IMG/VR virus record: IMGVR_UViG_2541047968_000015
Location: 1-10,718 of that record
Direction: 5' to 3' (one strand)
From: a virus
Taxonomy: Duplodnaviria > Heunggongvirae > Uroviricota > Caudoviricetes
Length of the DNA: 10,718 bases
Shown here: positions 1 through 10,718 of the stretch, piece after piece
Layout of the letters: each line of letters opens with the position of its first letter
Position numbering within the stretch: the first letter of the stretch is position 1
Notes under the pieces: model-generated
What the model was told of the DNA's origin: nothing
Database searches by the model: none
What the model saw: only the letters and a program-made list of their open reading frames with translations
Made by a program: the position numbers and the translations under genes

Positions 1-339
1 TGCAGCACGACGGTATAAGCCCCTGGACTCCAGTTCTTCCGCCTGGCGGGTCAGGCACAAAATCACCCTGGGATCGTTAGTGCCGACATAGAAATTGCGC
101 ACAGGTATGGTTTCAAGAACAGGTTGCAGTTTCTCCTCCTGCGATATCTCAGCCTGGTGTGGGAAATGTCTGCGTGTTTTCCCTTCACAACAGTGAGCCA
201 CACGGCCACTCTGACGTAACTTGCTTGCTGACTGCAGAACGCACTGTCGTGAGTAACCAGCAAAAGCATCCGCAATGTCACCTGAAGTACACCCCGGATG
301 GGCTTCAATGAATTTCTGTACATCGTTCATCAGACTCAT
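1..339 (-). CDS. Hypothetical protein, 3' end beyond window start (113 codons in window)
   Basis: Not in the ORF track. Hand translation of the minus strand from ATG (339-337) is open to position 1: MSLMNDVQKFIEAHPGCTSGDIADAFAGYSRQCVLQSASKLRQSGRVAHCCEGKTRRHFPHQAEISQEEKLQPVLETIPVRNFYVGTNDPRVILCLTRQAEELESRGLYRRAA. A GGGGG Shine-Dalgarno and the upstream gene's TGA stop sit directly 5' of the ATG (AGGGGGTGAtcATG). Function not recognised. Confidence 0.5.
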   Translation of the reverse strand, partial: MSLMNDVQKFIEAHPGCTSGDIADAFAGYSRQCVLQSASKLRQSGRVAHCCEGKTRRHFPHQAEISQEEKLQPVLETIPVRNFYVGTNDPRVILCLTRQAEELESRGLYRRAA

Positions 340-341
340 GA

Positions 342-1325
342 TCACCCCCTGAATCCTGTCGGGATCTGGCTGTAGTCCACGTTGTCGTAACTGGCTTTGA
401 AGTACGGGTCCTCGCGTCTGGCTGCAGATACCGCAGGAACTTCCCAGGATTCTTCGAAATGACGATCCGGACCAAAGAACGTGACAGCCTGTTTCACAAA
501 TTGTGTGCCGCTATTGCCCATCGCAGATACCCAGCCCGCGTAGCGTTTCACACCTTCCAGCATGGCTTCGGGGTTTACCCCCTCGTTCAAACGGGCTTTC
601 CAGGCTTTGAAGGCTGCTGATTTTGAATTGCCACCAGCACGTTTGGGATATTCCTGCCAGGCCTGTTCAAATTCCGGTGAATATTCCTGTCGGGCAGAAC
701 GCGCTGGCGCAGACGCGTCAGCGGATGCATCAATAGTGTTTTTAGTCTCCGTTGTAATCTCTGTAGTAATCTCTGTATTTGTATCAACATTCGGCGTATC
801 CCCTGTTCCGTTATGACGTCGGGGGGTGTTCCGTTTTAACGTAATAGCTGTATCGCTGATTGCATTATTGCTGTTACTTTCTGGCGAAACAGAAGAAGGT
901 GTGGTGATGGCCGCAATTGCCTGTGGGTTGATCCCGACAAACAAAATATTGCTGCATTTCACCCCATCGAGCATTTCCACCGTGCGTAAATCCAGAGTAA
1001 TAAACCCTGCATCGCGCAGACGCTTCAGCGCATCTGCGGTTTCCCTTTTCCCGAAACCAAACTGCTCAGCAAACGCCTGGTAGCTTCTTTGCAGTTTGTC
1101 GCCCTGAAAACGCTTGCGATATCCCAGCAACGCTCCGGTGTGCTCATCCCTGACCTCTGTCGGGCGGTACCAGTAAACGATCTCTGAAAGCAGAGCGATA
1201 GCCGTCGCATCCGGACGCCCACTGGGTAGTCGAATATATTTCCACCAGGTCGCAGGTGTAACATTGCCGGAAATATTAATTTGACCAATAGCCATAACTT
1301 CCGGTGTGGGGGCGTAACGGCTCAT
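342..1325 (-). CDS. Phage replication initiation / replisome-organiser protein (O-like)
   Basis: 327-aa ORF with AGGAGG 4 nt upstream of the ATG. The C-terminal region (FEQAWQEYPKRAGGNSKSAAFKAWKARL ... GTQFVKQAVTFFGPDRHFEESWEV) has the W/K-rich signature I associate with phage replication-initiator families. The ATG overlaps the upstream gene's stop (ATGA). Position in the cro-side operon matches lambda O or Rac ydaU. Confidence 0.75.
   Translation of the reverse strand: MSRYAPTPEVMAIGQINISGNVTPATWWKYIRLPSGRPDATAIALLSEIVYWYRPTEVRDEHTGALLGYRKRFQGDKLQRSYQAFAEQFGFGKRETADALKRLRDAGFITLDLRTVEMLDGVKCSNILFVGINPQAIAAITTPSSVSPESNSNNAISDTAITLKRNTPRRHNGTGDTPNVDTNTEITTEITTETKNTIDASADASAPARSARQEYSPEFEQAWQEYPKRAGGNSKSAAFKAWKARLNEGVNPEAMLEGVKRYAGWVSAMGNSGTQFVKQAVTFFGPDRHFEESWEVPAVSAARREDPYFKASYDNVDYSQIPTGFRG
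754..777. repeat. Perfect tandem direct repeat, 2 x 12 bp (gtaatctctgta), inside the replication gene linker region
   Basis: Seen directly: 754-765 and 766-777 are identical. It encodes the TEITTEITTE linker of the replication protein. A 9-bp direct repeat tgttccgtt lies nearby at 805-813 and 828-836. Confidence 0.7.
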
Positions 1326-1621
1326 ACAACCTCCTTCCGCGGCATGAGAATTGTGTAGCCACGCGCAGGTTGTAGTCTGGCTTTTGCATCAATAGTAAGC
1401 GTTGCAATTTTTCGGATATGAAGATAACCAGCTCTTTCCAGTGCCAGGGTTTCCCTGAATATCGCTTGCTTAGAACAACAGCAGAAATCAGCAAGCACCT
1501 GATGATCAATAACTCTCTCGCCTTCACCGTCTGAAGAACCCGACATCAAAACACGCAACATAATCAGGCGCTGAATCGGGTTATCGAAAGCACATCCGCA
1601 CACAAACTGAAAACAGTTCAC
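1322..1621 (-). CDS. Hypothetical small protein (99 aa)
   Basis: ORF with GTG start overlapping the upstream stop (GTGA) and its own stop overlapping the replication gene's ATG (ATGA), so it is translationally coupled within the leftward operon. No family recognised. Confidence 0.5.
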   Translation of the reverse strand: MNCFQFVCGCAFDNPIQRLIMLRVLMSGSSDGEGERVIDHQVLADFCCCSKQAIFRETLALERAGYLHIRKIATLTIDAKARLQPARGYTILMPRKEVV

Positions 1622-1842
1622 GCCACACCTCCCAGACGCTTAAACATTTTTCCGGAGCAAAAGGCTATAAGCGGCATACTGACGCGGTAATTACGGCCCA
1701 GCGGTTCACAAATCACCTTCTGACATTCACGGTCAACCAGGCTAACACGTAGAACATGCCCTGCAGGCGTGGTGTACCACTGACCCGGACGAGGACAACG
1801 GAAAGTATGATTGGTAAACCGTTTGAAAATATTCCGGATCAT
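1618..1842 (-). CDS. Hypothetical small protein (74 aa)
   Basis: ORF whose ATG (1842-1840) overlaps the Rha-like stop (ATGA); coupled within the leftward operon. No family recognised. Confidence 0.5.
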   Translation of the reverse strand: MIRNIFKRFTNHTFRCPRPGQWYTTPAGHVLRVSLVDRECQKVICEPLGRNYRVSMPLIAFCSGKMFKRLGGVA

Positions 1843-2384
1843 TTGCGCCCCCTTACCTCTGAAGGGTTCAGCGACAAATTTATGAGACTGGCCAGTAGCG
1901 CCGCGTCGTTGATGCGGTCATACAGACTTACAGCCAGCGGGGATTCGGCTTTTGCCAACATGGGATAAAGCTGCTGCAGCCAGACCTTGTGGATTACCGA
2001 CAGGTGGGAGTAAAGCACGCTGGCGTTATCTGCGGCATCGCTCAGCGTGGATGGCTTTGAAAGCAGTTTTTCCATCTGGTTAAAGGCATTGATGTATGCC
2101 TCTTTGAACTGGGCAGCACGTTTACCCGTGAAACCCATAGCAAGAAACGCAAAGCCGTCGCGGGTTATTTGATAGCAAGGTAGTTTGCGGCCTGTGCAAT
2201 CGGTGTAATCACTCACCGAAAAATTGCGGGCAGTGAATGATGCGGAACATTCAAGCGTGCGGATCTTTTTCAGTACATCGTCATGACGTTTGGAGAAGAA
2301 GTTGGCAACAGCCAGGGATGAAGTAACAGCCTGACCATCAACGATGGCAATTTCAGGTTGAGTGAGGGTTGGGATCGTAGCCAT
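1839..2384 (-). CDS. rha: Phage regulatory protein Rha-like (pRha domain), 181 aa
   Basis: Internal ATG at 2384-2382 preceded by GGAGG with an 8-nt spacer. The protein starts MATIPTLTQPEIAIVDGQAVTSSLAVANFFSKRHDDVLKKIRTL ... YQITRDGFAFLAMGFTGKRAAQFKEAYINAFNQME, matching the Rha family signature (F.KRHD.VL..IR ... DGF.FL.MGFTGK.A..FKE.YI.AF). The ORF track merges it with a 201-codon upstream in-frame extension. Confidence 0.8.
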   Translation of the reverse strand: MATIPTLTQPEIAIVDGQAVTSSLAVANFFSKRHDDVLKKIRTLECSASFTARNFSVSDYTDCTGRKLPCYQITRDGFAFLAMGFTGKRAAQFKEAYINAFNQMEKLLSKPSTLSDAADNASVLYSHLSVIHKVWLQQLYPMLAKAESPLAVSLYDRINDAALLASLINLSLNPSEVRGRK

Positions 2385-2987
2385 GATGGCAGCCTCCGTA
2401 TGCAATGGATAACTTCCACCACCGGAAACGCCAATTTCGCTGGTGGTGAACTGAGCAGGGTTGGCGTAACCGGCGCATACGGAAACCGGCGCACCTTTCG
2501 GTGCCCCCACCCAGCCCACCATAATTTGGGTATAGCTGAGTTGTAGCAACAAAAAAGACGCTAACGCGCCAATTGTCGCCGTATGCAATTCCAGGACGCC
2601 AATCCCGACACCCGCTTTATAAGGTGCCTGAACAGTGTAACGTCCCGGAATGGCAGAATCAATGTGCTGGTGGTCCTTCACACTCAACAAAATCACGCCT
2701 GAATTTCCACAAAGGACTAAAGCACTCATGCTGGTAGTCTTTGCGAAGATAGATAACGCGCTGTGTTTCTGGCTCCCAACGAATAACATGGACATAAAGC
2801 CCTCTTCCGTCACGAAACCAGCGGTTAAGTTCCTGCACAACTCGCCCCCCACAGTCAGGTAAAGTTCTCTGTGGTTACTTACAGCCAGGTGATTTGGTAA
2901 TCTGCATTCATGCCGTAACAACAGGTGTTCAGCGACGCTGACCACCAGCTGTTGCGACAAACGGTTATTTGCCGTTAAACTATTCAT
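2385..2987 (-). other. In-frame open segment (201 codons) between the YdaT-like and Rha-like genes; coding status unresolved
   Basis: ATG at 2987-2985 overlaps the YdaT-like stop (ATGA) and the frame runs without a stop into the Rha ATG. The translated sequence is low in charged residues (about 11 percent), rich in S/L/A/G/V, and matches no family I recognise. Could be a real N-terminal domain, a separate or fused gene, or a fortuitously open frame. Confidence 0.3.
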
Positions 2988-3541
2988 GCGTTAGTTTCTC
3001 CACAACCAGAAGCAATCGACGCCACGACGCCCGGAGCTGCACACTCGCGGGCGTTACTATTTTCTGGAGCGCAGAAGATTTTGTAGACCAGTGCTGCATG
3101 CTCCTGGAGCTTCGAAATTGAGAGGTACAGCTCGTCGTTAATTGCTGTCTTCTCATGCGGTTCCACTACACCGTCTTCGATTGCTGAACGAATCTGTCTG
3201 GAATAACTGCCGATCTGTTCAATGACTTCCAGCAGACGCTGGTTAATATCGGCGTTGTCCACATCCTCGACGTCAGGAAGAGACACAAAGACGCCATTTG
3301 CAGACTGCGCCACAGCGTCAGCAATGAAGTGAGTTCCACCAGCACGTTGTAAAATCATTGCCCATCCCAGCGGGAAAATCTGATCGCCATCTGCACGAAG
3401 GCGGTTGAATAATGCGTTCTCTGTTACATCCAGCCACTCAGCAGCTTCAGCGTAACCCCCCGGCAACGCCGCGATAGTTTTTCTGACAGCTTTCACGTAC
3501 CACTCAGGCTGTTTTTCCACTTTCCAGTGATGATTACCCAC
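2984..3541 (-). CDS. CII-like / YdaT-like regulatory protein (185 aa)
   Basis: ORF with GTG start (3541-3539) preceded by GGAGG with a 6-nt spacer, overlapping the end of the cro-like gene. Its position directly after the cro-like gene matches lambda cII or Rac ydaT; the family assignment is by position and weak recollection only. Confidence 0.55.
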   Translation of the reverse strand: MGNHHWKVEKQPEWYVKAVRKTIAALPGGYAEAAEWLDVTENALFNRLRADGDQIFPLGWAMILQRAGGTHFIADAVAQSANGVFVSLPDVEDVDNADINQRLLEVIEQIGSYSRQIRSAIEDGVVEPHEKTAINDELYLSISKLQEHAALVYKIFCAPENSNARECAAPGVVASIASGCGETNA

Positions 3542-3794
3542 GGCTTACCTCCTGTTCCTGTGGTTTAAACCCATTCTGGTTTTGGCTAGATTGAAAACGT
3601 GCCGGATAAAGAATCTGCATTTCGCTGATTTCACCCTTAAAAAAATTGGCCAGACGTTCTGCAAGATCGATAGATGGAATTTGTTCCAGTCTTTCAATAC
3701 GACTCAGCGTCGCTGGATTGACCTGAACGCCCGCAGCAACATGCTGCAAAGTAAATCCGTGCGCCTTACGCACATTCCGTAATGGTGATTGCAT
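3534..3794 (-). CDS. cro: Cro-like HTH (XRE-family) transcriptional regulator, 86 aa
   Basis: ORF with ATG at 3794-3792 and GGAGG 5' of it. Helix-turn-helix motif (GFTLQHVAAGVQVNPATLSRIERLEQIPS). Divergent from the repressor gene across a 97-bp operator region. Confidence 0.8.
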   Translation of the reverse strand: MQSPLRNVRKAHGFTLQHVAAGVQVNPATLSRIERLEQIPSIDLAERLANFFKGEISEMQILYPARFQSSQNQNGFKPQEQEVSRG

Positions 3795-3891
3795 ATAACC
3801 TCCACATATTGCGTGATGAGCATATTATTTCACGCAAATATTTTGCGCAAGTTGATTTGCTTAACGCGCAATAAAGAAATGTAATAAACGC
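3795..3891. promoter_or_regulatory. Divergent immunity-region promoter/operator segment (PR-like for cro; cI promoter unresolved)
   Basis: Minus-strand promoter candidate: -35 TTGCGC (complement of 3845-3850), 17-nt spacer, -10 TAATAT (complement of 3822-3827). Inverted repeat TTGCGTGA-N13-TCACGCAA at 3809-3837 overlaps the -10 and start region. Palindrome TTGCGCAA at 3843-3850. A 15-bp TTGC-N7-GCAA site at 3857-3871. Confidence 0.6.
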
Positions 3892-4584
3892 ATGAACATA
3901 GGAAACCGAGTCAGACAACTTCGCCAGGCGAAGAACATGAAAATCGCCGATCTCGCTGAAGCAATAGGAGTGGATGCGGCGAATATCTCACGCCTGGAAA
4001 CAGGTAAGCAGAAACAATTCACTGAACAAGCCCTGAGTAATATTGCCAGGAGCTTAGGTGTTGATATTGCTGATCTCTTTACCTCAGACGTCAAAAGTAA
4101 TACTGTATGTAAAAACAGTATTAGTGAGGATGTTGCGCAGGTGAAGGATGTATTCCGTATTGAAATGCTGGATGTCAGTGCCAGTGCGGGAAATGGCCTT
4201 ATCCAGGGCGGTGATGTCATTGATGTGATTCATGCCATTGAATACAGAACTGATAATGCTGTATCGATGTTTGGTGGACGACCAGCAAATCACATTAAAG
4301 TTATCAACGTTCGTGGGGACAGTATGTGTCCAACCATTGAGCCAGGAGATCTCATCTTCGTTGATATCAGTATCAATCAGTTTGATGGGGATGGTATATA
4401 TGTATTTGGTTTTGATGATAAAATTTACGTCAAACGACTGCAAATGATACCTGATAAACTGCTGGTAATTTCTGATAATCAGATTTACCGCGAATGGGGA
4501 ATTACCAGCGAAAACGAACATCGGTTTATGGTCTTTGGAAAGGTCTTAATCAGTCAGTCACAAACCCTTAAGCGACACAATTAA
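3892..4584 (+). CDS. cI: cI-like prophage repressor, N-terminal HTH plus C-terminal S24 (LexA-like) peptidase domain, 230 aa
   Basis: N-terminal HTH (MKIADLAEAIGVDAANISRLETGKQ). C-terminal S24 signature with catalytic Ser in GDSM (VINVRGDSMCPTIEPGDLIFVD) and downstream Lys (IYVKRL). Divergent from the cro-like gene. Confidence 0.9.
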   Translation: MNIGNRVRQLRQAKNMKIADLAEAIGVDAANISRLETGKQKQFTEQALSNIARSLGVDIADLFTSDVKSNTVCKNSISEDVAQVKDVFRIEMLDVSASAGNGLIQGGDVIDVIHAIEYRTDNAVSMFGGRPANHIKVINVRGDSMCPTIEPGDLIFVDISINQFDGDGIYVFGFDDKIYVKRLQMIPDKLLVISDNQIYREWGITSENEHRFMVFGKVLISQSQTLKRHN

Positions 4585-4605
4585 CCCCCTACCTCAACAT
4601 CAATT

Positions 4606-4630
4606 AGCCACCAGAAGGTGGCTTTTCATT
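4606..4630 (+). terminator. Rho-independent terminator downstream of the repressor gene
   Basis: Perfect 7-bp stem AGCCACC (4606-4612) / GGTGGCT (4617-4623) with loop AGAA, followed by TTTCATT. Confidence 0.8.
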
Positions 4631-4640
4631 ACCCACCAAA

Positions 4641-4694
4641 TTGCATATCTCGCAATAAAAACACTTGCATAATGCGCAACTTCATTTTATCTTT
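4641..4694 (+). promoter_or_regulatory. PL-like operator pair and candidate rightward early promoter
   Basis: Two 15-bp TTGC-N7-GCAA sites (4641-4655 ttgcatatctcgcaa; 4665-4679 ttgcataatgcgcaa) share the half-site motif of the cro/cI intergenic sites. Candidate -35 TTGCAT (4665-4670) and weak -10 TATCTT (4688-4693) with a 17-nt spacer. Promoter hexamers are weak; the operators are the firmer observation. Confidence 0.45.
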
Positions 4695-5123
4695 CTTTCC
4701 AGACCTACAAACAAGGTACTAACAAAATTTGGTTGTAACACGGCGTATGGCACATGCGTCGTTAGCGGTCTGGGGACGTTAAAGGGGACAATCCACTCCT
4801 TGCTCGGGCAAACAAACCAGGTAGCCGGAATGTGCAAGTCAATGAGGATGCTGATAAGACGCCTAACCAGCGTGGCGATTCGGTTTGACGCCTGGGAAGA
4901 GACCAGGACGCAACGATGAGAGCATTTATGGAGCCGCGACAAAGTGTGGTGCCGTAACTGGCTAAGTGCTCTCAGCGTTGTGGTGAATGCGCAGGCTGAT
5001 GCGCGAAAGACATTGCAGCTATTGCGGAAAAGAGCTGTTCGGCGGGGCAATTAAACGCCCGTGAGAGTCTGAAATAACCGCAAGCCGGAGATCAGCACCG
5101 GTCACCACAACAGCCACTGCTTT

Positions 5124-5170
5124 GGCGGTACCAGTTTGTACACTTGCTTCCGGCTGGTACCGCTCTTTTT
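5124..5170 (+). terminator. Hairpin with T-tract (candidate intrinsic terminator or attenuator) in the leader of the rightward operon
   Basis: Perfect 10-bp inverted repeat GCGGTACCAG (5125-5134) / CTGGTACCGC (5154-5163) with a 19-nt loop, followed by TCTTTTT (5164-5170). The loop is long for a canonical terminator. Confidence 0.45.
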
Positions 5171-5259
5171 ACAAAACAGAGAAGAGCATCACCGGACGAC
5201 GGGCTCATAACCCAATCCATCCGGGCGGCTGCCACCGCAGGTGTTCTTCTCTGTTTTGT
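5171..5259. repeat. Perfect 15-bp inverted repeat with 59-bp spacer, immediately upstream of the RdgC-like RBS
   Basis: ACAAAACAGAGAAGA (5171-5185) and its exact reverse complement TCTTCTCTGTTTTGT (5245-5259). The left arm abuts the T-tract of the preceding hairpin; the right arm ends about 22 nt before the GAGGAAAA Shine-Dalgarno. Confidence 0.7.
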
Positions 5260-5293
5260 GGAGAAACTAATACATTGTGCAGAGGAAAATAGA

Positions 5294-6211
5294 ATGAAAT
5301 TACCAAAATTTCGTAACGCAATTGTGTACCGAGCAACATTACCTAGTATACAGGCTATTGAAGGTCATCTTCTCGAACTCCCTTATTCTGAAATCGGGGA
5401 AACAGAATTTTCACGGTCCTCTTTTGTAGAGAATCCTGTCACTGGTGAACTGGTAACTCCGATATCTGGTGGGTACGCAATGGTAATCCGTCATGATCAG
5501 AAAATAATTCCCCGACATGTCGTCATGAAAGAAGCTAATTCTCGAATCCAAACAATCGAAAATATGTCCGGGAATAAATTAAAGCGTGCCGAACGACTGG
5601 CCATTATTGATAACGTACGAGTAGATCTATGCAAACAGGCATTTGTTAAGTCTACTCTGATTCTTGCATTGTACAGCACTGATGAGAAATTATTGGTAAT
5701 CAACACAACCAATAAAATAATAGCCGGTATGGTATGCGCAATGCTGATTAAGGTTGTCGGTTCAGTGAAAACAGAAACAATCAACATCAGTGATATCAAG
5801 AATGGACTGACTACACGCCTGAATAACTACATCAATGGTGCAGCCAATGCATTTGAAGGATTCACTGTCGGAAATTATATTCAGCTATCACGCTACGCAG
5901 ATCAAAAGGAAATTATTCGCTACTCAGCTGAGCATGAGTCAATTCAAAGCGAACTGGCCGATAGCCTTAGTAGTAGTTTCACTGCTGATAAAATGGAGTT
6001 ATCCGGTTGCGGTGTGACCTTCATTCTTACCGAAAATTTCCATTTTTCGCGCATCAATACTCAATCTCAGACATTTAATGATGAAGATGATAAAGCATTC
6101 CAGTGGCGTCATCAGACTGGCGCTGACCTTTTCCAATTCAGCAAGGTAGTTAATTTGATGTGTGACCTTCTTTCTTACAAAGAAGATAAAAGCCAAAATC
6201 CAACAACTTAA
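5294..6211 (+). CDS. RdgC-like recombination-associated DNA-binding protein (305 aa)
   Basis: ATG at 5294 preceded by GAGGAAAA. The N-terminus MKLPKFRNAIVYRATLPS parallels RdgC (MLWFKNLMVYRLS...), and further blocks (AMVIRHDQKIIPRHVVMKEANSRIQTIE; LILALYSTDEKLLVINTTNKIIAGMVCAMLIKVVGSVKT) align with my recollection of E. coli RdgC. The track's TTG-start extension (5144) is rejected. The gene is noticeably AT-rich relative to its neighbours. Confidence 0.8.
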   Translation: MKLPKFRNAIVYRATLPSIQAIEGHLLELPYSEIGETEFSRSSFVENPVTGELVTPISGGYAMVIRHDQKIIPRHVVMKEANSRIQTIENMSGNKLKRAERLAIIDNVRVDLCKQAFVKSTLILALYSTDEKLLVINTTNKIIAGMVCAMLIKVVGSVKTETINISDIKNGLTTRLNNYINGAANAFEGFTVGNYIQLSRYADQKEIIRYSAEHESIQSELADSLSSSFTADKMELSGCGVTFILTENFHFSRINTQSQTFNDEDDKAFQWRHQTGADLFQFSKVVNLMCDLLSYKEDKSQNPTT

Positions 6212-6215
6212 AAAA

Positions 6216-6259
6216 ATTGCAGCAATCATCCCATGTTAAATGGGCTGGATTGCTGCAAT
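6216..6259. repeat. 12-bp perfect inverted repeat (ATTGCAGCAATC / GATTGCTGCAAT) with 20-bp spacer between the rdgC-like and HD genes
   Basis: Arms at 6216-6227 and 6248-6259. The spacer contains a nested CCCAT/ATGGG mini-hairpin. An A7 run (6209-6215) precedes it, so on the minus strand it reads as stem plus U-tract. Confidence 0.6.
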
Positions 6260-6301
6260 CAAAATTCAGAGCGGTGCAGCGCATATAACGTGGAGAACAA
6301 A

Positions 6302-6838
6302 ATGTCATTTATTAAAACTTTTTCCGGGAAGCATTTTTATTATGACAAGATAAATAAAGACGACATCGTGATTAACGATATCGCGGTTTCCCTTTCAAAT
6401 ATCTGCCGCTTTGCCGGTCATCTTTCTCACTTCTACAGTGTCGCCCAACATGCGGTGCTTTGCAGCCAGCTGGTGCCGCAGGAATTTGCTTTTGAAGCGT
6501 TAATGCATGATGCAACAGAAGCGTATTGCCAGGATATTCCCGCTCCACTGAAACGCCTTCTTCCTGACTATAAACGGATGGAAGAAAAAATAGACGCCGT
6601 AATCCGTGAGAAATACGGGTTACCCCCGGTTATGAGCACGCCTGTGAAATATGCCGATCTCATCATGCTGGCAACCGAACGCCGCGATCTCGGGCTTGAT
6701 GATGGCTCTTTCTGGCCAGTACTGGAAGGTATCCCGGCAACAGAAATGTTCAAAGTTATTCCACTGGCTCCGAGCCATGCCTACGGGATGTTTATGGAGC
6801 GCTTTAACGAGTTATCGGAGTTACGCACATGCGCATGA
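6302..6838 (+). CDS. HD-domain phosphohydrolase (YfbR-like 5'-nucleotidase fold), 178 aa
   Basis: ATG at 6302 preceded by GGAGA. Metal-binding HD signature: H in VAQHAV, HD in EALMHDATEAY, and downstream D in ADLIMLATERRD. The track's longer start at 6233 lies inside the inverted repeat and is rejected. Confidence 0.75.
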   Translation: MSFIKTFSGKHFYYDKINKDDIVINDIAVSLSNICRFAGHLSHFYSVAQHAVLCSQLVPQEFAFEALMHDATEAYCQDIPAPLKRLLPDYKRMEEKIDAVIREKYGLPPVMSTPVKYADLIMLATERRDLGLDDGSFWPVLEGIPATEMFKVIPLAPSHAYGMFMERFNELSELRTCA

Positions 6839-7440
6839 ATGTTTTCGAAATGGAAGGGTTTCTTCGCGGGAAATGTGTACCACGAGATCTGAAAGTGAAT
6901 GAAACAAATGCTGAATATCTGGTGCGTAAATTTGCTGAAGCGGAGGCCAAGATTTTGGCTCTGTCCGAAGACCAACAGAAATCGATTGAGTCAATTAAGC
7001 AGGCTGATGCAGCTGTTAAGTTGGCACACGAGAAGTTTTCGGCGCTGGCGGCGGAGAATGCGGGGCTGAAACACGCAATGGCCGTAACTCTTGAGCATGT
7101 GTCGGTCACGGATGCAGGGCAGGCTGGTGTTGCTGCAATGATTATCAACGATGCCCTGCACCACAGCGAAACTCCAGCCACCGATGCTTTCCTGGCTGAA
7201 ATTCGTGCGGAAGCACGCAACGAGGGGATTAACTATACCGCAAGCCGTCTTGCTGCTGCTTTCAATCACGGATTTATCAATAAGTCTTTACGTGAAGTTT
7301 TCGACGTTACACGCATGATTCTGTCAGCGAAAGAAGAGTTGGCTAATGAACCACACCCGATTGATGGCCTGTCCGGTGAATATGCGGAGAAATCCCTAGA
7401 AGAATGGGCGGAACAGATTCGCAAAGGAGGCAACCAGTGA
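6829..7440 (+). CDS. Hypothetical coiled-coil protein of the Ea22-like accessory region (203 aa)
   Basis: ATG at 6829 with GGAG 8 nt upstream, overlapping the HD gene stop. Ala/Glu/Lys-rich heptad-like N-terminal half. Family uncertain. Confidence 0.65.
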   Translation: MRMNVFEMEGFLRGKCVPRDLKVNETNAEYLVRKFAEAEAKILALSEDQQKSIESIKQADAAVKLAHEKFSALAAENAGLKHAMAVTLEHVSVTDAGQAGVAAMIINDALHHSETPATDAFLAEIRAEARNEGINYTASRLAAAFNHGFINKSLREVFDVTRMILSAKEELANEPHPIDGLSGEYAEKSLEEWAEQIRKGGNQ

Positions 7441-7661
7441 GCGGAAAAAGAATGACTAACAGAGAGCTTGTCGATGCCGCGATTAAGCTTGCTGGTGATT
7501 TTTATTCAATGATGGGGTACACGCATCGCCCAGGCTTCAAATATTGGGAGTCTCCTCACCCGCAAGAGCAACTGGTATTTCAAATGGCCTGCCGTGCTTT
7601 TGAGGTTATTTGCGGTTCTGATGTGATGGACGCCGTTGCCGACTTGGAGGATGAAGAGTGA
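7437..7661 (+). CDS. Hypothetical small protein (74 aa, GTG start)
   Basis: GTG at 7437 overlaps the upstream TGA (GTGA) with GGAGG 6 nt upstream. The track's longer 7404 start lacks an RBS. An in-frame ATG at 7452 is an alternative start. Confidence 0.6.
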   Translation: MSGKRMTNRELVDAAIKLAGDFYSMMGYTHRPGFKYWESPHPQEQLVFQMACRAFEVICGSDVMDAVADLEDEE

Positions 7662-8023
7662 GCGAGATTAACTATCAGGCACTGCGTGAGGCAGCAGTAG
7701 CAATTGAAACAGTGGCAACGCCTCAAAAATTGCAGGCGTTTCGGATGAAGGTCACACCGTCGGTGGTACTGGCGCTGCTGGATGAAATTAAGCGCCTGGA
7801 GGACACAAATATTGATGCTATGTGCCGAATTGCAGAACTGGAAGCGAGGGAAGTCGAGTTACCGGATGGCTACGAACCCCGTATGGGCCACCCAATAAAT
7901 AGCGGTGAGCGGGTGGTAATGATGCCGCACCACTTTGGTGGATGGCTGGACCGCTTCGACGTCGAGCACGCATTGCAGGCAGCGGGGATCAAATTCAAAA
8001 CAGCGGGGGTTGAGTACGAATGA
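7658..8023 (+). CDS. Ead/Ea22-like protein (121 aa)
   Basis: GTG start overlapping the upstream stop (GTGA) with GGAGG 7 nt upstream. The N-terminal motif INYQALREAA resembles the conserved start of Ead/Ea22-like proteins as I recall them. Confidence 0.6.
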   Translation: MSEINYQALREAAVAIETVATPQKLQAFRMKVTPSVVLALLDEIKRLEDTNIDAMCRIAELEAREVELPDGYEPRMGHPINSGERVVMMPHHFGGWLDRFDVEHALQAAGIKFKTAGVEYE

Positions 8024-8253
8024 TTGAGGGTATTAGCAATAAATCGTTGAACACAGCATGTGTCGACGGTGGGTTGTTGTACAAAGTGACGTTTACGCAA
8101 ATCGACAACGAAGATAACGCATTCACTGTGATTTACACGTCGCCAGCGATGGCGCAGAAGTGGGTGGATCTGCACAGGCTATGTGGTTTTCGTGTTGAGT
8201 GGGGGTGCTATGAGATGCGATGCAGATGGCATCATCGGGGGGATGAAAAATGA
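8020..8253 (+). CDS. Hypothetical small protein (77 aa)
   Basis: ATG overlaps the upstream stop (ATGA); G-rich stretch upstream. No family recognised. Confidence 0.55.
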   Translation: MIEGISNKSLNTACVDGGLLYKVTFTQIDNEDNAFTVIYTSPAMAQKWVDLHRLCGFRVEWGCYEMRCRWHHRGDEK

Positions 8254-8627
8254 GCACTACGCTTGAGCAATGGCTGGAACAGCAGCACGGCAAAATTGAT
8301 GTTGATTGCGGCTGTGTGAGCACTGAAACGCTTATGCACTGGATGCGTGTGGCGTATGAGGCTGGCAACTCTCCGGTAACTCCGGAGAGTTGGATAAGCT
8401 GTAGTGAGCGAATGCCAGAAATGGGAGAGCGACAATGCTATGTGTTAGCTGCTGACTTTAAAAACAACTACCCACCAAACATCCCCAACACTCAGGTCGG
8501 CGTATATGGCGACTGGTTTAATGATGGCAAGCCCACTTGGGATGACGGTGATGGCGAAGACCTGTATCTCAAGGAGGTAACCCACTGGATGCCGCTGCCA
8601 GAACCGCCGCAAGAGGTGAATCAATGA
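8250..8627 (+). CDS. DUF551-like phage protein (125 aa)
   Basis: ATG overlaps the upstream stop (ATGA). The C-terminal motif ...GDWFNDGKPTWDDGDGEDLYLKEVTHWMPLPEPP matches my recollection of the DUF551 signature (HWMP.P.PP). Confidence 0.65.
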   Translation: MSTTLEQWLEQQHGKIDVDCGCVSTETLMHWMRVAYEAGNSPVTPESWISCSERMPEMGERQCYVLAADFKNNYPPNIPNTQVGVYGDWFNDGKPTWDDGDGEDLYLKEVTHWMPLPEPPQEVNQ

Positions 8628-8707
8628 GCTGGCCTGATGCAATCGTAACTCTGGGGGTGGTATTCGCAGCAGCGTTTGTTGTGTTCTCGATTTGTCGATG
8701 GGGATAA
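8624..8707 (+). CDS. Candidate 27-aa single-pass hydrophobic peptide
   Basis: Hand-translated: ATG at 8624 overlaps the DUF551 gene stop (ATGA), giving MSWPDAIVTLGVVFAAAFVVFSICRWG then TAA. It exactly fills the gap before the next gene. Below the ORF-track size cutoff. Confidence 0.35.
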   Translation: MSWPDAIVTLGVVFAAAFVVFSICRWG

Positions 8708-8711
8708 CCAC

Positions 8712-8954
8712 ATGTTCGCTTTGATTCAACGCGGGCAGATATACACCGATAGTGCTGGCTACCCGATAAAAATTGTTCGCTGCATAAACAACACTGTGTT
8801 GTACAGAAGAATGGATGGGCGAACACAGTCGGTAAAAATAAACGATTTTAATGAACTGTTTGAACGGATCGATCACCAGGAATACCGACAAATTCTGGCA
8901 GAAACAGAGCAGGAAGCTCATCTGAAAAAATTACGAGCCATGAAAAGGAAGTAA
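8712..8954 (+). CDS. Hypothetical small phage protein (80 aa; possibly DUF4222-like)
   Basis: ATG at 8712 with GGGGA 7 nt upstream. The track's TTG start at 8676 overlaps the small peptide ORF and is rejected. The pattern IQRGQIYTDSAGYPIKIV...VLYRR...F resembles small DUF4222-type proteins, but this is a weak recollection. Confidence 0.55.
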   Translation: MFALIQRGQIYTDSAGYPIKIVRCINNTVLYRRMDGRTQSVKINDFNELFERIDHQEYRQILAETEQEAHLKKLRAMKRK

Positions 8955-8957
8955 ACA

Positions 8958-9104
8958 ATGAATAAAGCATTTGAACAATGGGTCCACCAGCGTTACGGCA
9001 ATCGCTATGACCTGACGCGAGATGTTGACGGTTTCTACTGTCGTGAAATTGTGAAACGAATGTTTGAAGTGTGGTGCCACTGCCGTGGGCTGAGTGTTGT
9101 GTGA
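8958..9104 (+). CDS. Candidate small Cys/His-containing protein (48 aa)
   Basis: Hand-translated: AGGAAG 8 nt upstream of ATG 8958, giving MNKAFEQWVHQRYGNRYDLTRDVDGFYCREIVKRMFEVWCHCRGLSVV then TGA at 9102-9104. It fills the gap before xis. Below the track cutoff. Confidence 0.45.
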   Translation: MNKAFEQWVHQRYGNRYDLTRDVDGFYCREIVKRMFEVWCHCRGLSVV

Positions 9105-9112
9105 GGTAATGC

Positions 9113-9349
9113 ATGGGCAATGTGATTCAACTGGCTCCCAATGAATGGGTTTGTGAAAGCGTTCTAATCGCAATTACCGGGCTCAAACCAGGCACAATTC
9201 TTCGGGCCCGGAAAGAATGCTGGATGGTTGGAAGAGAGTATATTCACGTATCACCAGACGGTAATCCAAAGCCTTCCAGTGAATGTATGTATAACAGAAA
9301 AGCAATAGGTGCCTGGGTCGCTTCAATGAAAAACAAACAACCTGGGTGA
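9113..9349 (+). CDS. xis: Excisionase-like protein (78 aa)
   Basis: Immediately upstream of the integrase. The segment ILRARKECWMVGREYIHV parallels lambda Xis VRRWVRECRIFPP..GREYLFH. GAGGT lies upstream of the ATG. Confidence 0.65.
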   Translation: MGNVIQLAPNEWVCESVLIAITGLKPGTILRARKECWMVGREYIHVSPDGNPKPSSECMYNRKAIGAWVASMKNKQPG

Positions 9350-9404
9350 TTTAATGCCATGAAGTATGTAAGCTCGTATCGCTCTTGGGCGTCTGGAGGT
9401 ATCA

Positions 9405-10718
9405 ATGGATAAAGTCAAATATCCAACAGGCGTCGAAAACCACGGCGGCACATTACGCATCTGGTTTAATTTTAAAGGTAAACGTGTCAGGGAAAATCTT
9501 GGTGTCCCTGACACTGCCAAGAACAGGAAGATCGCCGGGGAACTGCGGACATCGGTATGTTTTGCCATCCGCACAGGAAGCTTTGATTATGCTGCACAGT
9601 TCCCTGACTCCCCCAACCTTCAGGCTTTTGGGGTAAGTAAAAAAGAAATTACGGTGAAGGAACTTGAAGAAAAGTGGCTGGATCTGAAACGAATGGAAAT
9701 CTCTGCAAATGCATTCAATCGCTATGAATCCGTTGCAAGAACGATGGTTTCGAAAATTGGAGGCAGTAGACTGGTGTCATCGGTAACCAAAGAGGAATTG
9801 CTGTATATCAGGAAAGATTTGCTAACCGGGTATCAGAATTCAACGAAAAACAAAGCAGCAGCAAAAGGACGGAGCGTCGTTACTGTAAATTATTACATGA
9901 CGACAATCGCTGGAATGTTTCAGTTTGCTGCAGATCACGGTTACTTAGAAGCAAATCCCTTCCAGGGAATTAAGCCTCTTAAAAGAGCCAGGGCAGAGCC
10001 AGATCCGCTAACTCGTGACGAATTTATTCGCCTGATAGATGCTTGCCGACATCAGCAGACGAAAAACCTGTGGTCATTGGCTGTGTACACAGGAATGCGT
10101 CACGGTGAACTGGTCTCCCTGGCCTGGGAAGATATCGATCTGAAGGCAGGAACAATTACCATCAGGCGCAATTATACGAAACTTGGTGAGTTCACTCTAC
10201 CGAAAACTGAAGCAAGCACAAACAGGGTTGTGCACCTTATCCAGCCCGCTATCAGTGTCCTGAAAAATCAGGCTGAAATGACAAGACTGGGTAAGCAGTA
10301 CAACATCAAGGTGCAACTACGTGAATATGGACGTTCAGTGAACCATGAATGTACTTTCGTGTTTAACCCTCAAGTGGTTAGAAAAAGCGAACAGGTAGGT
10401 TTTGTCTACAAAGTCGATTCTGTAGGTGACTCATGGGAAACAGCCATTAAGCGTGCAGGGATCAGGCATCGAAAGGCATACCAGTCACGACACACTTATG
10501 CGTGCTGGTCATTATCTGCCGGAGCAAACCCAAGCTTCATTGCCAGCCAGATGGGCCATGCAAGTGCCCAGATGGTATTCAATGTATACGGAGCATGGAT
10601 GACTGACAGCAATGCAGAACAGATCGCAATGCTGAATCAGAAGCTGACAGATTATGTCCCAATGATGCCCCATAGTCACCAAAGTGACACCAGAGGCTTA
10701 TTAAAATCAGTAAGTTAA
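9405..10718 (+). CDS. int: Tyrosine site-specific integrase, IntR/Rac-type with N-terminal arm-binding domain (437 aa)
   Basis: GGAGGT 5 nt upstream of the ATG. N-terminus PTGVENHGGTLRIWFNFKGKRVRENLG is typical of the arm-type DNA-binding domain. C-terminal catalytic region has RHTYACWSL ... MGHASAQMVFNVYGAW with the Tyr nucleophile. The stop codon coincides with the window end. Confidence 0.9.
   Translation: MDKVKYPTGVENHGGTLRIWFNFKGKRVRENLGVPDTAKNRKIAGELRTSVCFAIRTGSFDYAAQFPDSPNLQAFGVSKKEITVKELEEKWLDLKRMEISANAFNRYESVARTMVSKIGGSRLVSSVTKEELLYIRKDLLTGYQNSTKNKAAAKGRSVVTVNYYMTTIAGMFQFAADHGYLEANPFQGIKPLKRARAEPDPLTRDEFIRLIDACRHQQTKNLWSLAVYTGMRHGELVSLAWEDIDLKAGTITIRRNYTKLGEFTLPKTEASTNRVVHLIQPAISVLKNQAEMTRLGKQYNIKVQLREYGRSVNHECTFVFNPQVVRKSEQVGFVYKVDSVGDSWETAIKRAGIRHRKAYQSRHTYACWSLSAGANPSFIASQMGHASAQMVFNVYGAWMTDSNAEQIAMLNQKLTDYVPMMPHSHQSDTRGLLKSVS

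Follow-up and report, generated by a model that had tools for sequence, protein, structure and literature searches.

Replication origins located inside the gene of their own initiator are already known from phage lambda, phage SPP1 and plasmid pSK41. In lambda the origin lies within the linker-coding part of gene O, is crossed by early transcription and consists of dyad-symmetric iterons followed by an AT-rich segment. The N-terminal domain of the O protein and the iterons make up a specificity module, and the C-terminal domain recruits the helicase system. The oriL of SPP1 is located inside gene 38 and contains direct repeats together with an AT-rich unwinding element (PMC6316719). The Rep protein of pSK41 binds four boxes located centrally within rep, the origin-encoded linker being dispensable and the C-terminal domain host-specific (PMC5703833), and the iterons of RepA_N replicons are semi-palindromes converging on an A-tract (PMC7145576). 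In the plasmids RK2 and F, the DNA unwinding element (DUE) contains repeated 13-mers, a single strand of which is bound by the initiators TrfA and RepE; every 13-mer matters in its sequence and not merely in its AT content (PMC4081077). Here we describe a repeat cluster in a lambdoid Escherichia coli prophage, found in a 10,718-nucleotide (nt) stretch of DNA (positions 1 to 10,718 of IMG/VR record IMGVR_UViG_2541047968_000015), the whole of which is referred to as the window. The cluster, at positions 742-843, is embedded in the linker-coding part of the gene for a replication initiator of 327 amino acids (aa) and, judging from comparison with related loci, is very probably a cis-acting replication origin.

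The initial annotation had proposed a candidate in-gene origin of the lambda kind in this gene, based on a perfect tandem repeat of 2 x 12 base pairs (bp) and a pair of 9-bp direct repeats. The tandem repeat is exactly as described, with 754-765 and 766-777 both reading GTAATCTCTGTA on the plus strand. The top-scoring Tandem Repeats Finder array of the window covers 746-777 (score 50; 2.7 copies with a period of 12), and a perfect tandem duplication with a unit of at least 12 was found in 0 of 200 shuffles of the window. The 9-bp pair is also real, but it had been placed one base off: 805-813 and 828-836 are identical at eight of nine positions, and the exact 9-mer TGTTCCGTT occupies 804-812 and 827-835. 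With 88% identity, the similarity of the pair reaches over 16 nt (804-819 and 827-842, spacing 23 bp). Neither is it the repeat unit as such, being part of three semi-palindromic iterons of 17 nt with spacings of 23 and 22 bp; autocorrelation of this zone is best at a lag of 23. The 12-mers are not themselves the iterons but a separate element that adjoins them throughout the family described below.

Read in the sense of the gene, the order of the elements is TACGTTAAAACGGAACA CCCCCC GACGTCATAACGGAACA GGGGA TACGCCGAATGTTGATA CAAA TACAGAGATTAC TACAGAGATTAC AACGGAGACTAA (Table 1). Relatives from Xenorhabdus, Arsenophonus and Rosenbergiella have iterons with which iteron 1 is in register. The degenerate iteron 3 agrees in 15 of 21 bases with TACGTTGAAACGTAAGACAAA, the final iteron in the Xenorhabdus relative, and that iteron has the same position before the 12-mer array. 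Iterons and 12-mers are found at 742-843 and nowhere else in the window. This segment sits between the end of the N-terminal domain (N-domain), at 903, and the start of the C-terminal domain (C-domain), near 736, so that the repeats are indeed in the linker-coding part, and the 12-mers translate as (TEIT)n. Within 160 bp on either side, no 20-mer is less stable or richer in AT than the array; at 65% AT it is also the AT-richest stretch, and the earlier remark that a strongly AT-rich flank is missing holds. Single-stranded structure of the region was not significant (z -0.54), which led to the rejection of a model in which the 12-mers form a hairpin or cruciform.

The layout resembles lambda ori in several respects. 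In both, the initiator gene belongs to a lambdoid early operon and has its repeats in the linker-coding part, where a segment richer in AT comes after phased, dyad-symmetric iterons. The two differ in that lambda has four 19-bp iterons of unrelated sequence, compared with three of 17 nt at 22/23 bp here, in that the AT-rich part is here a sequence-conserved 12-mer array, and in that no P-like gene follows the initiator gene. The initiator had been called O-like, but it has no sequence homology to lambda O and no match to Phage_rep_O.

The initiator matches phrog_270, 'replication initiation protein', with an E value of 5e-75. It matched no Pfam family at E<=0.01 and no NCBIfam model, and a PDB sequence search gave no solved relative; when Pfam was searched at E<=10, the sole outcome was a weak match to HTH_36 (E 0.055), with none to RepA_N (PF06970). 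The structure model of the N-domain is confident up to aa 141, corresponding to window position 903, with a predicted local distance difference test score (pLDDT) of 91.4 and a predicted template modelling score (pTM) of 0.84. The model predicts an extended winged helix that includes an N-terminal helix and a beta-hairpin insertion. The modelled fold most closely resembles that of a RepA_N plasmid initiator. The RepA_N proteins of pSK41 and pTZ2162 also combine a winged-helix N-domain with repeated boxes located centrally in their own gene, although binding is here a prediction, and also join a conserved N-domain to exchangeable C-domains. The semi-palindromes of the window converge on an A-tract (TACGTTAAAACGG and GACGTCATAACGG) as RepA_N iterons do, and iterons from elsewhere in the family (TACGTTGAAACGTA and CCCCAAAAAATGGGG) are of the same semi-palindromic form. 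Unlike RepA_N proteins, the initiator is predicted to carry an extra conserved N-terminal helix (LLSEIVYWYRP) and the hairpin insertion. The 12-mer array is a further difference, no such array being mentioned in the RepA_N papers cited here, and the family of the window is spread over many phyla, mostly in phages.

Homologs of the N-domain are abundant. Over residues 8-141 the protein shares 43-55% identity with 'DnaD-like' initiators encoded by Geobacillus, Acinetobacter, Bacillus, Eggerthella and Exiguobacterium phages, and the family amounts to 2447 clusters (at 50% identity) at E<=1e-10. By family we mean winged-helix initiators with the LLSEIVYW helix and a presumed in-gene origin made of iterons and the 12-mer TACAGAGAWTAC. 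In E. coli the same N-domain and linker are joined to two different C-terminal tails, one of which is followed by DnaC-like and DnaB-like genes. The same N-domain is found with a DnaB_2 C-domain in phages of Bacillota and with unrelated C-domains in Acinetobacter phages. Some members of the family (P0043, P0047 and P0049), with lengths of 640-730 aa, are matched by the N-domain profile over two separate segments, which would mean a tandem duplication of the putative origin-binding domain.

The C-domain of the window matches phrog_26426 and phrog_1701. At the DNA level (332-736) it is approximately 93% identical to rep of mEp460, SfV, cdtI and many Stx phages, and the N-terminal 590 bp of the gene had no DNA match among 50,697 phage records. 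SPP1 offers a partial parallel, since its repeats are also inside the initiator gene, and the linker of gene 38 contains repeats and then a tandem array of AT-rich 9-mers. In addition, the Geobacillus relative has G39P-like and DnaB-like genes downstream of rep, and the C-termini of G38P and of the window protein both match positions ~190-305 of phrog_1701. The repeat sequences of the two systems are unrelated, however, and Pfam Phg_2220_C does not match the C-domain of the window. SPP1 G38P was considered as a homolog of the N-domain and rejected, as the two N-domains are not detectably homologous (BLASTP E 0.77, hhalign probability 0.2%).

Alone, the 9-mer pair is within chance, a dozen similar pairs being present in 1.1 kb, and the family comparison is what gives it its meaning. 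In four distant phage homologs the linker DNA holds three to four direct repeats with a dyad core at 22/23-bp spacing, among them GGGGTGTGACGTTAGAACGTCA (four copies, Geobacillus phage), TCCTACGTTAGAAAGTACCACCC (three copies, Acinetobacter phage IME-AB2) and CCTCCTACATTAGAACGTAAGA (three copies, Bacillus phage Athena). Directly after these iterons follow two to four tandem copies of TACAGAGA(A/T)TAC. The comparison was extended to 80 genome loci with 38-65% N-domain identity, taken from contigs of one genome per species, in addition to the Geobacillus, Acinetobacter and Bacillus phages. These loci come from Enterobacterales, Acinetobacter, many Bacillota, Chloroflexota, Atribacterota, Armatimonadota, Desulfobacterota and others, representing at least six phyla. 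When one mismatch was allowed, TACAGAGAWTAC was found within 450 nt after the N-domain in 73 of 82 diverse loci, with two or more copies in 43. Its density is 3.2 per kb past the N-domain, compared with 0.026 per kb in the remaining 234 kb (~125-fold). All copies are on the coding strand, the opposite strand having none among the 82 loci, and 10 of the 12 positions are nearly invariant.

For 62 of the 70 non-redundant loci, autocorrelation over the 110 nt before the array was best at a lag of 22 or 23 bp; in control coding DNA the best lag was scattered. The iteron cores are specific to clades (TACGTTnnAACGTA, CATGTAATcAATTACATG, TGGCGCcacaGCGCCA, GCCCTnnAGGGC and CCCCAAAAAAnGGGG), unlike the 12-mer and the preceding junction GAC(A/G)(A/T)A, which are common to all clades. 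The window conforms to this, with a tandem family 12-mer on the coding strand after the last iteron (GATACAAA followed by two copies of TACAGAGATTAC, from 785 to 754). Across 73 loci the array is enriched in AT by 8-13 percentage points over the locus mean, and the iteron zone is enriched in GC. The complete 38-kb genome of the Geobacillus phage PT9.1 has iterons and 12-mers in the rep gene only. The same N-domain, iterons and 12-mers were also found in the rep gene of a 16-kb Vagococcus plasmid. A plasmid search returned no relatives of the pPR9 type or from staphylococci. The same N-domain also heads proteins of 500-690 aa, some annotated as 'DnaA-like', on plasmids of Chlamydiota (Protochlamydia pPNK, L174), Rickettsiales (Megaira, L175), Deinococcota (Deinococcus, L176) and Cyanobacteriota (Nostoc, L177); in these four the 12-mer is single-copy, diverged or not found.

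In IMG/VR the exact double 12-mer occurs in at least 119 contigs, and in all 119 listed it is inside a long open reading frame (ORF). Among these ORFs, 86 encode the N-domain of the window, 20 the 'protein O' type of Stx1 phages and about five a third type; the remainder are cut by contig ends. The Stx1-type and third N-domains share the xxIxYW helix and a winged helix-turn-helix (wHTH) with that of the window, to which they are weakly related (profile comparison probability 33-56%). A strict tracking of the 12-mer with one N-domain superfamily was considered and could not be established, as the wHTH of mEp460 is at least as similar and is accompanied by a different array.

The 12-mer is conserved as DNA rather than as peptide, as comparison of codons and reading frames across the loci indicates. 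In several lineages neighbouring 12-mers are 13 nt apart, so that identical DNA is read in different frames. Exemplified by locus L141, where TACAGAGAATAC-A-TACAGAGAATAC is read as NTENT and YREY. In total, 15 of 126 12-mers are outside the common frame. Those in frame use GAG for Glu in 90 of 90 cases and ACA for the first Thr in 108 of 108, whereas in the N-domain of the same loci (28-64% GC) GAA accounts for 62% of the Glu codons and each of the four Thr codons for 20-33%. The peptide-conserved 'xIT' at the end of the N-domain serves as an internal control and shows free synonymous variation in the same loci. Because of the frame shifts, the fixed synonymous codons and this varying control, the conservation is placed at the DNA level; a peptide constraint may coexist with it. 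Repeats that are absent or synonymously scrambled in homologs would, according to the initial annotation, have spoken against an origin. The opposite was observed, in that the elements are retained in many phyla at protein identities as low as 38%, with no change at their synonymous positions.

A further sequence resembling the 12-mer, TACAGCTATTAC, with two mismatches, abuts iteron 1 on its upstream side (841-852, minus strand). It was considered as a second flanking element and rejected, since the 'xIT' codons, about 50 nt upstream of it at the N-domain end, vary synonymously among relatives and are thus conserved at the peptide level. The match is probably due to chance.

Variation in repeat number with conserved domains, which the initial annotation had suggested looking for, is found among E. 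coli prophages. The 84 scorable loci of the E. coli type have 1, 2, 3, 4 or 5 copies of the 12-mer in 1, 69, 12, 1 and 1 cases, respectively, with flanks otherwise unchanged and N-domains otherwise 97-100% identical. Comparison with other phages locates the borders of exchange. DNA homology to the Stx1 phage covers the C-domain up to window position 776, the end of the array, and breaks at the iterons and N-domain, where the Stx1 phage has 23-bp iterons of the CCGCGG type and a different N-domain. For mEp460, the homology does not reach beyond 736. Because the breaks fall at these two positions, the N-domain together with the iterons forms one exchangeable specificity cassette and the C-domain another. 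Joint movement of N-domain and iterons in this cassette accounts for the mosaic borders seen in these rep genes.

Both of these phages carry repeats of their own at the corresponding place. In the Stx1a-converting phage Stx1_14040 (L172, 1500-1630), three 23-bp repeats with a CCGCGG core are followed by four 12-mers of the TACAGAGAWTAC type; the N-domain of its 'replication protein O' is remotely like that of the window, and DnaC-like and DnaB-like genes are located downstream. The rep of mEp460 and SfV has a different N-domain and the same C-domain, in the same host. Its linker in mEp460 (L171, 1600-1790) contains its own repeats spaced ~21-24 bp (GGTAGTGCAGGAGATTCAC-like), followed by an array with a 12-bp period, GAACCAGTCAAA, in about four copies, and is a candidate for a parallel in-gene origin.

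With the elements, their geometry and position, their conservation as DNA alongside one initiator family across phyla and the borders of modular exchange as described, initiation at 742-843 can be pictured as follows. Dimers of the winged-helix N-domain would bind the three semi-palindromic iterons, which would lie on one face of the DNA because a spacing of 23 and 22 bp is approximately two helical turns. The resulting nucleoprotein complex would destabilise the TACAGAGATTAC array next to it, which is less stable than any other segment of the region. The near-invariant sequence of the 12-mer suggests that the array is read sequence-specifically, plausibly as one single strand, as TrfA and RepE read the DUE 13-mers and DnaA reads DnaA-trios. 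The exchangeable C-domain may then recruit the replicative helicase. Here the helicase of the host is proposed, because the 341 bp of the window downstream of rep contain no phage helicase or loader gene, and none follows rep in L001 and L002, close relatives with this arrangement. Transcription from the early promoter would cross the site, as it does at lambda ori.

The closest functional model for the TACAGAGAWTAC array, and for a putative binding of the 12-mers, is provided by the DUE 13-mers of RK2 and F, where 22-bp-phased iterons are likewise located beside tandem repeats of fixed sequence (PMC4081077). Unlike the initiators of the present family, those of RK2 and F are of the Rep_3 type with two winged-helix domains. 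Their origins are outside the rep gene, and their 13-mers are not conserved across phyla.

Overall, the comparative evidence strongly supports the candidate in-gene origin proposed by analogy with lambda gene O. Several observations weigh against this. The iterons of the window are few, with the third one degenerate, and their lag-23 identity is 0.39 compared with a family mean of 0.51. The array, at 65% AT, is unlike a classical, strongly AT-rich DUE. No DnaA box was found in or near the initiator gene, and the cumulative GC skew of the complete Geobacillus phage relative is monotonic and uninformative. One frame is shared by 111 of the 126 family 12-mers. Initiators of the mEp460 type share a related wHTH, the C-domain and the host, yet have a different array of 12-bp period. 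A second origin elsewhere in the prophage is possible, the window covering only 10.7 kb. Finally, in the literature searched, which mostly did not cover subscription journals, no experimental origin mapping was found for the prophage or any family member.

Some of these observations would also suit a regulatory role. The cluster might be an initiator-binding site for autorepression, for a roadblock in the early operon, for copy control by handcuffing or for incompatibility, with the origin located elsewhere in the prophage. Plasmid iterons in general also have control functions. SPP1 has two initiator-binding regions (PMC6316719), and the small visible part of the prophage and the few, degenerate iterons are in line with such a role. 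Nevertheless, we regard it as unlikely. The complete Geobacillus phage relative is without a second cluster of iterons or 12-mers, phased iterons beside an AT-enriched repeated element are the layout of an origin, and the N-domain and iterons move together as a unit. Furthermore, comparable in-gene clusters are origins in lambda, and in SPP1 oriL and pSK41 (PMC6316719, PMC5703833).

That homology between the window and the Stx1 phage breaks exactly at the array, and that copy number varies by unequal exchange, could also indicate that the array is a homology patch for exchange of the [N-domain + iteron] and [C-domain] modules, or a hitch-hiker, in either case with no direct role in initiation. 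This seems very improbable to us, as recombination between distant phyla cannot keep 10 of 12 positions near-invariant, and the strand polarity and the position adjoining the iterons fixed, in hosts of 28-64% GC, and the array is located where DUE repeats sit in known iteron origins (PMC4081077). Least credible is a slippage-prone, low-complexity TEIT linker without function as DNA. In its favour, the in-frame array is translated as (TEIT)n, the number of copies changes by multiples of 12 bp and most family 12-mers share a frame. Against it, copies in other frames keep the same DNA, the 90 Glu and 108 Thr codons show no synonymous variation, compared with 38% and 33% use of these codons in the flanking domain, the peptide-conserved 'xIT' of the same loci varies freely at synonymous sites, and the neighbouring iterons, with a period of 22/23 bp, cannot be peptide repeats.

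For the proposed origin at 742-843, the near-invariant 12-mer predicts a conserved protein-DNA contact, possibly with single-stranded DNA. It is unusual that the element on the unwinding side is near-invariant across phyla while the iterons diverge, which would separate specificity from common mechanism within one origin. A more far-reaching interpretation, which we offer tentatively and hold to be rather doubtful, is that TACAGAGAWTAC is a previously undescribed sequence-specific 'melting box' of a trans-phylum superfamily of winged-helix phage and plasmid initiators, in which a conserved initiator surface reads one strand and the iterons alone carry replicon specificity. In the literature searched, with the same limited coverage of subscription journals, no published description of the 12-mer was found, the full-text matches being unrelated primers and shRNA, and no described origin was found for this initiator family of ~2400 clusters without a Pfam model; literature on phage, DnaD-like and replisome-organiser origins yielded analogues and nothing on the family. 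If the 'melting box' holds true, it would be an unwinding element conserved in sequence from Enterobacterales to Chloroflexota and a one-line signature by which origins could be diagnosed across thousands of phages, prophages and plasmids not yet characterised. The origin model itself is concrete and testable for a common class of E. coli prophages, and is applicable to Acinetobacter, Bacillus and Geobacillus phages and many uncultured lineages. The motif may find practical use in origin annotation, in predicting incompatibility groups from iteron type and in replicons with shifted host range.

Table 1. Positions of the proposed origin elements, the initiator gene and neighbouring features in the window
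Feature	Position	Strand	Remarks
Replication initiator gene, 327 aa	342-1325	-	Last gene of the cro-cII-Ash/Rha early operon; from ORF list and translation
C-terminal domain module, presumed helicase/replisome recruiter	342-736	-	Starts near aa 197; exchanged independently of N-domain and iterons
Degenerate third 12-mer, AACGGAGACTAA	742-753	-	8/12 positions; Tandem Repeats Finder array reaches 746; read from sequence
Two perfect 12-mers, TACAGAGATTAC, proposed melting/single-strand recognition element	754-777	-	Tandem array and family statistics
Junction, GATACAAA	778-785	-	Counterpart of the family-wide GAC(A/G)(A/T)A before the 12-mer array; aligned junctions of ~70 loci
Iteron 3, degenerate, TACGCCGAATGTTGATA	782-798	-	22 bp after iteron 2; read from sequence
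Iteron 2, GACGTCATAACGGAACA	804-820	-	23 bp after iteron 1; contains the first 9-mer
Iteron 1, TACGTTAAAACGGAACA in gene sense	827-843	-	Direct repeat; family dyad ACGTTnnAACGT with 1 mismatch
N-terminal domain, aa 1-141, extended winged helix, presumed iteron-binding module	903-1325	-	Confident structure model
ORF99, small wHTH protein	1322-1621	-	Overlaps the rep start codon; phrog_4617, E 2e-29
Ash/Rha gene, 382-aa ORF	1839-2987	-	Leftward operon, upstream of two small ORFs
Two Rfam matches (RF01695, RF01394)	2439-2526 and 2551-2627	-	Inside the Ash/Rha ORF
CII/YmfL-like gene	2984-3541		Leftward operon
cro	3534-3794		First gene of the leftward operon
cI-like repressor	3892-4584	+	HTH and Peptidase_S24; faces the leftward operon

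The ORF list, Pfam matches and operon context identify the window as the early and immunity region of the prophage (Table 1). Genes for RdgC, an Ea22-like protein, a DUF551 protein and an integrase are located on the other side of the window from the early operon. Near-identical DNA is present in many E. coli chromosomes, the segment encoding N-domain and linker being found in 321 of 5426 complete genomes. Promoter and terminator signals in 1-1700 were not above chance, and no Rfam family matched the origin region.

The small ORF99 is distantly related to the wHTH N-domain of initiators of the mEp460/SfV type (BLASTP against mEp460 Rep, E 7e-6). ORF99 and mEp460 rep have similar sequences upstream, and ORF99 is positioned where rep of mEp460 starts; it is missing in one relative, L004. 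ORF99 looks like a relic, or a separate wHTH, that stayed behind when the shared C-domain acquired a new [N-domain + iteron] cassette in front of it.

The two Rfam matches inside the Ash/Rha ORF are a C4 antisense RNA (RF01695, 80.7 bits) and isrK (RF01394, 58.9 bits), both above the Rfam gathering scores. The pair suggests antisense control of a Rha-domain antirepressor of the P1/P7 type, and the 382-aa ORF may in reality consist of leader RNAs and a shorter gene. Furthermore, a 9-bp tandem repeat, TGATGTCAT, is present in 3.3 copies with 76% matches at 4212-4241, inside the cI-like repressor gene.

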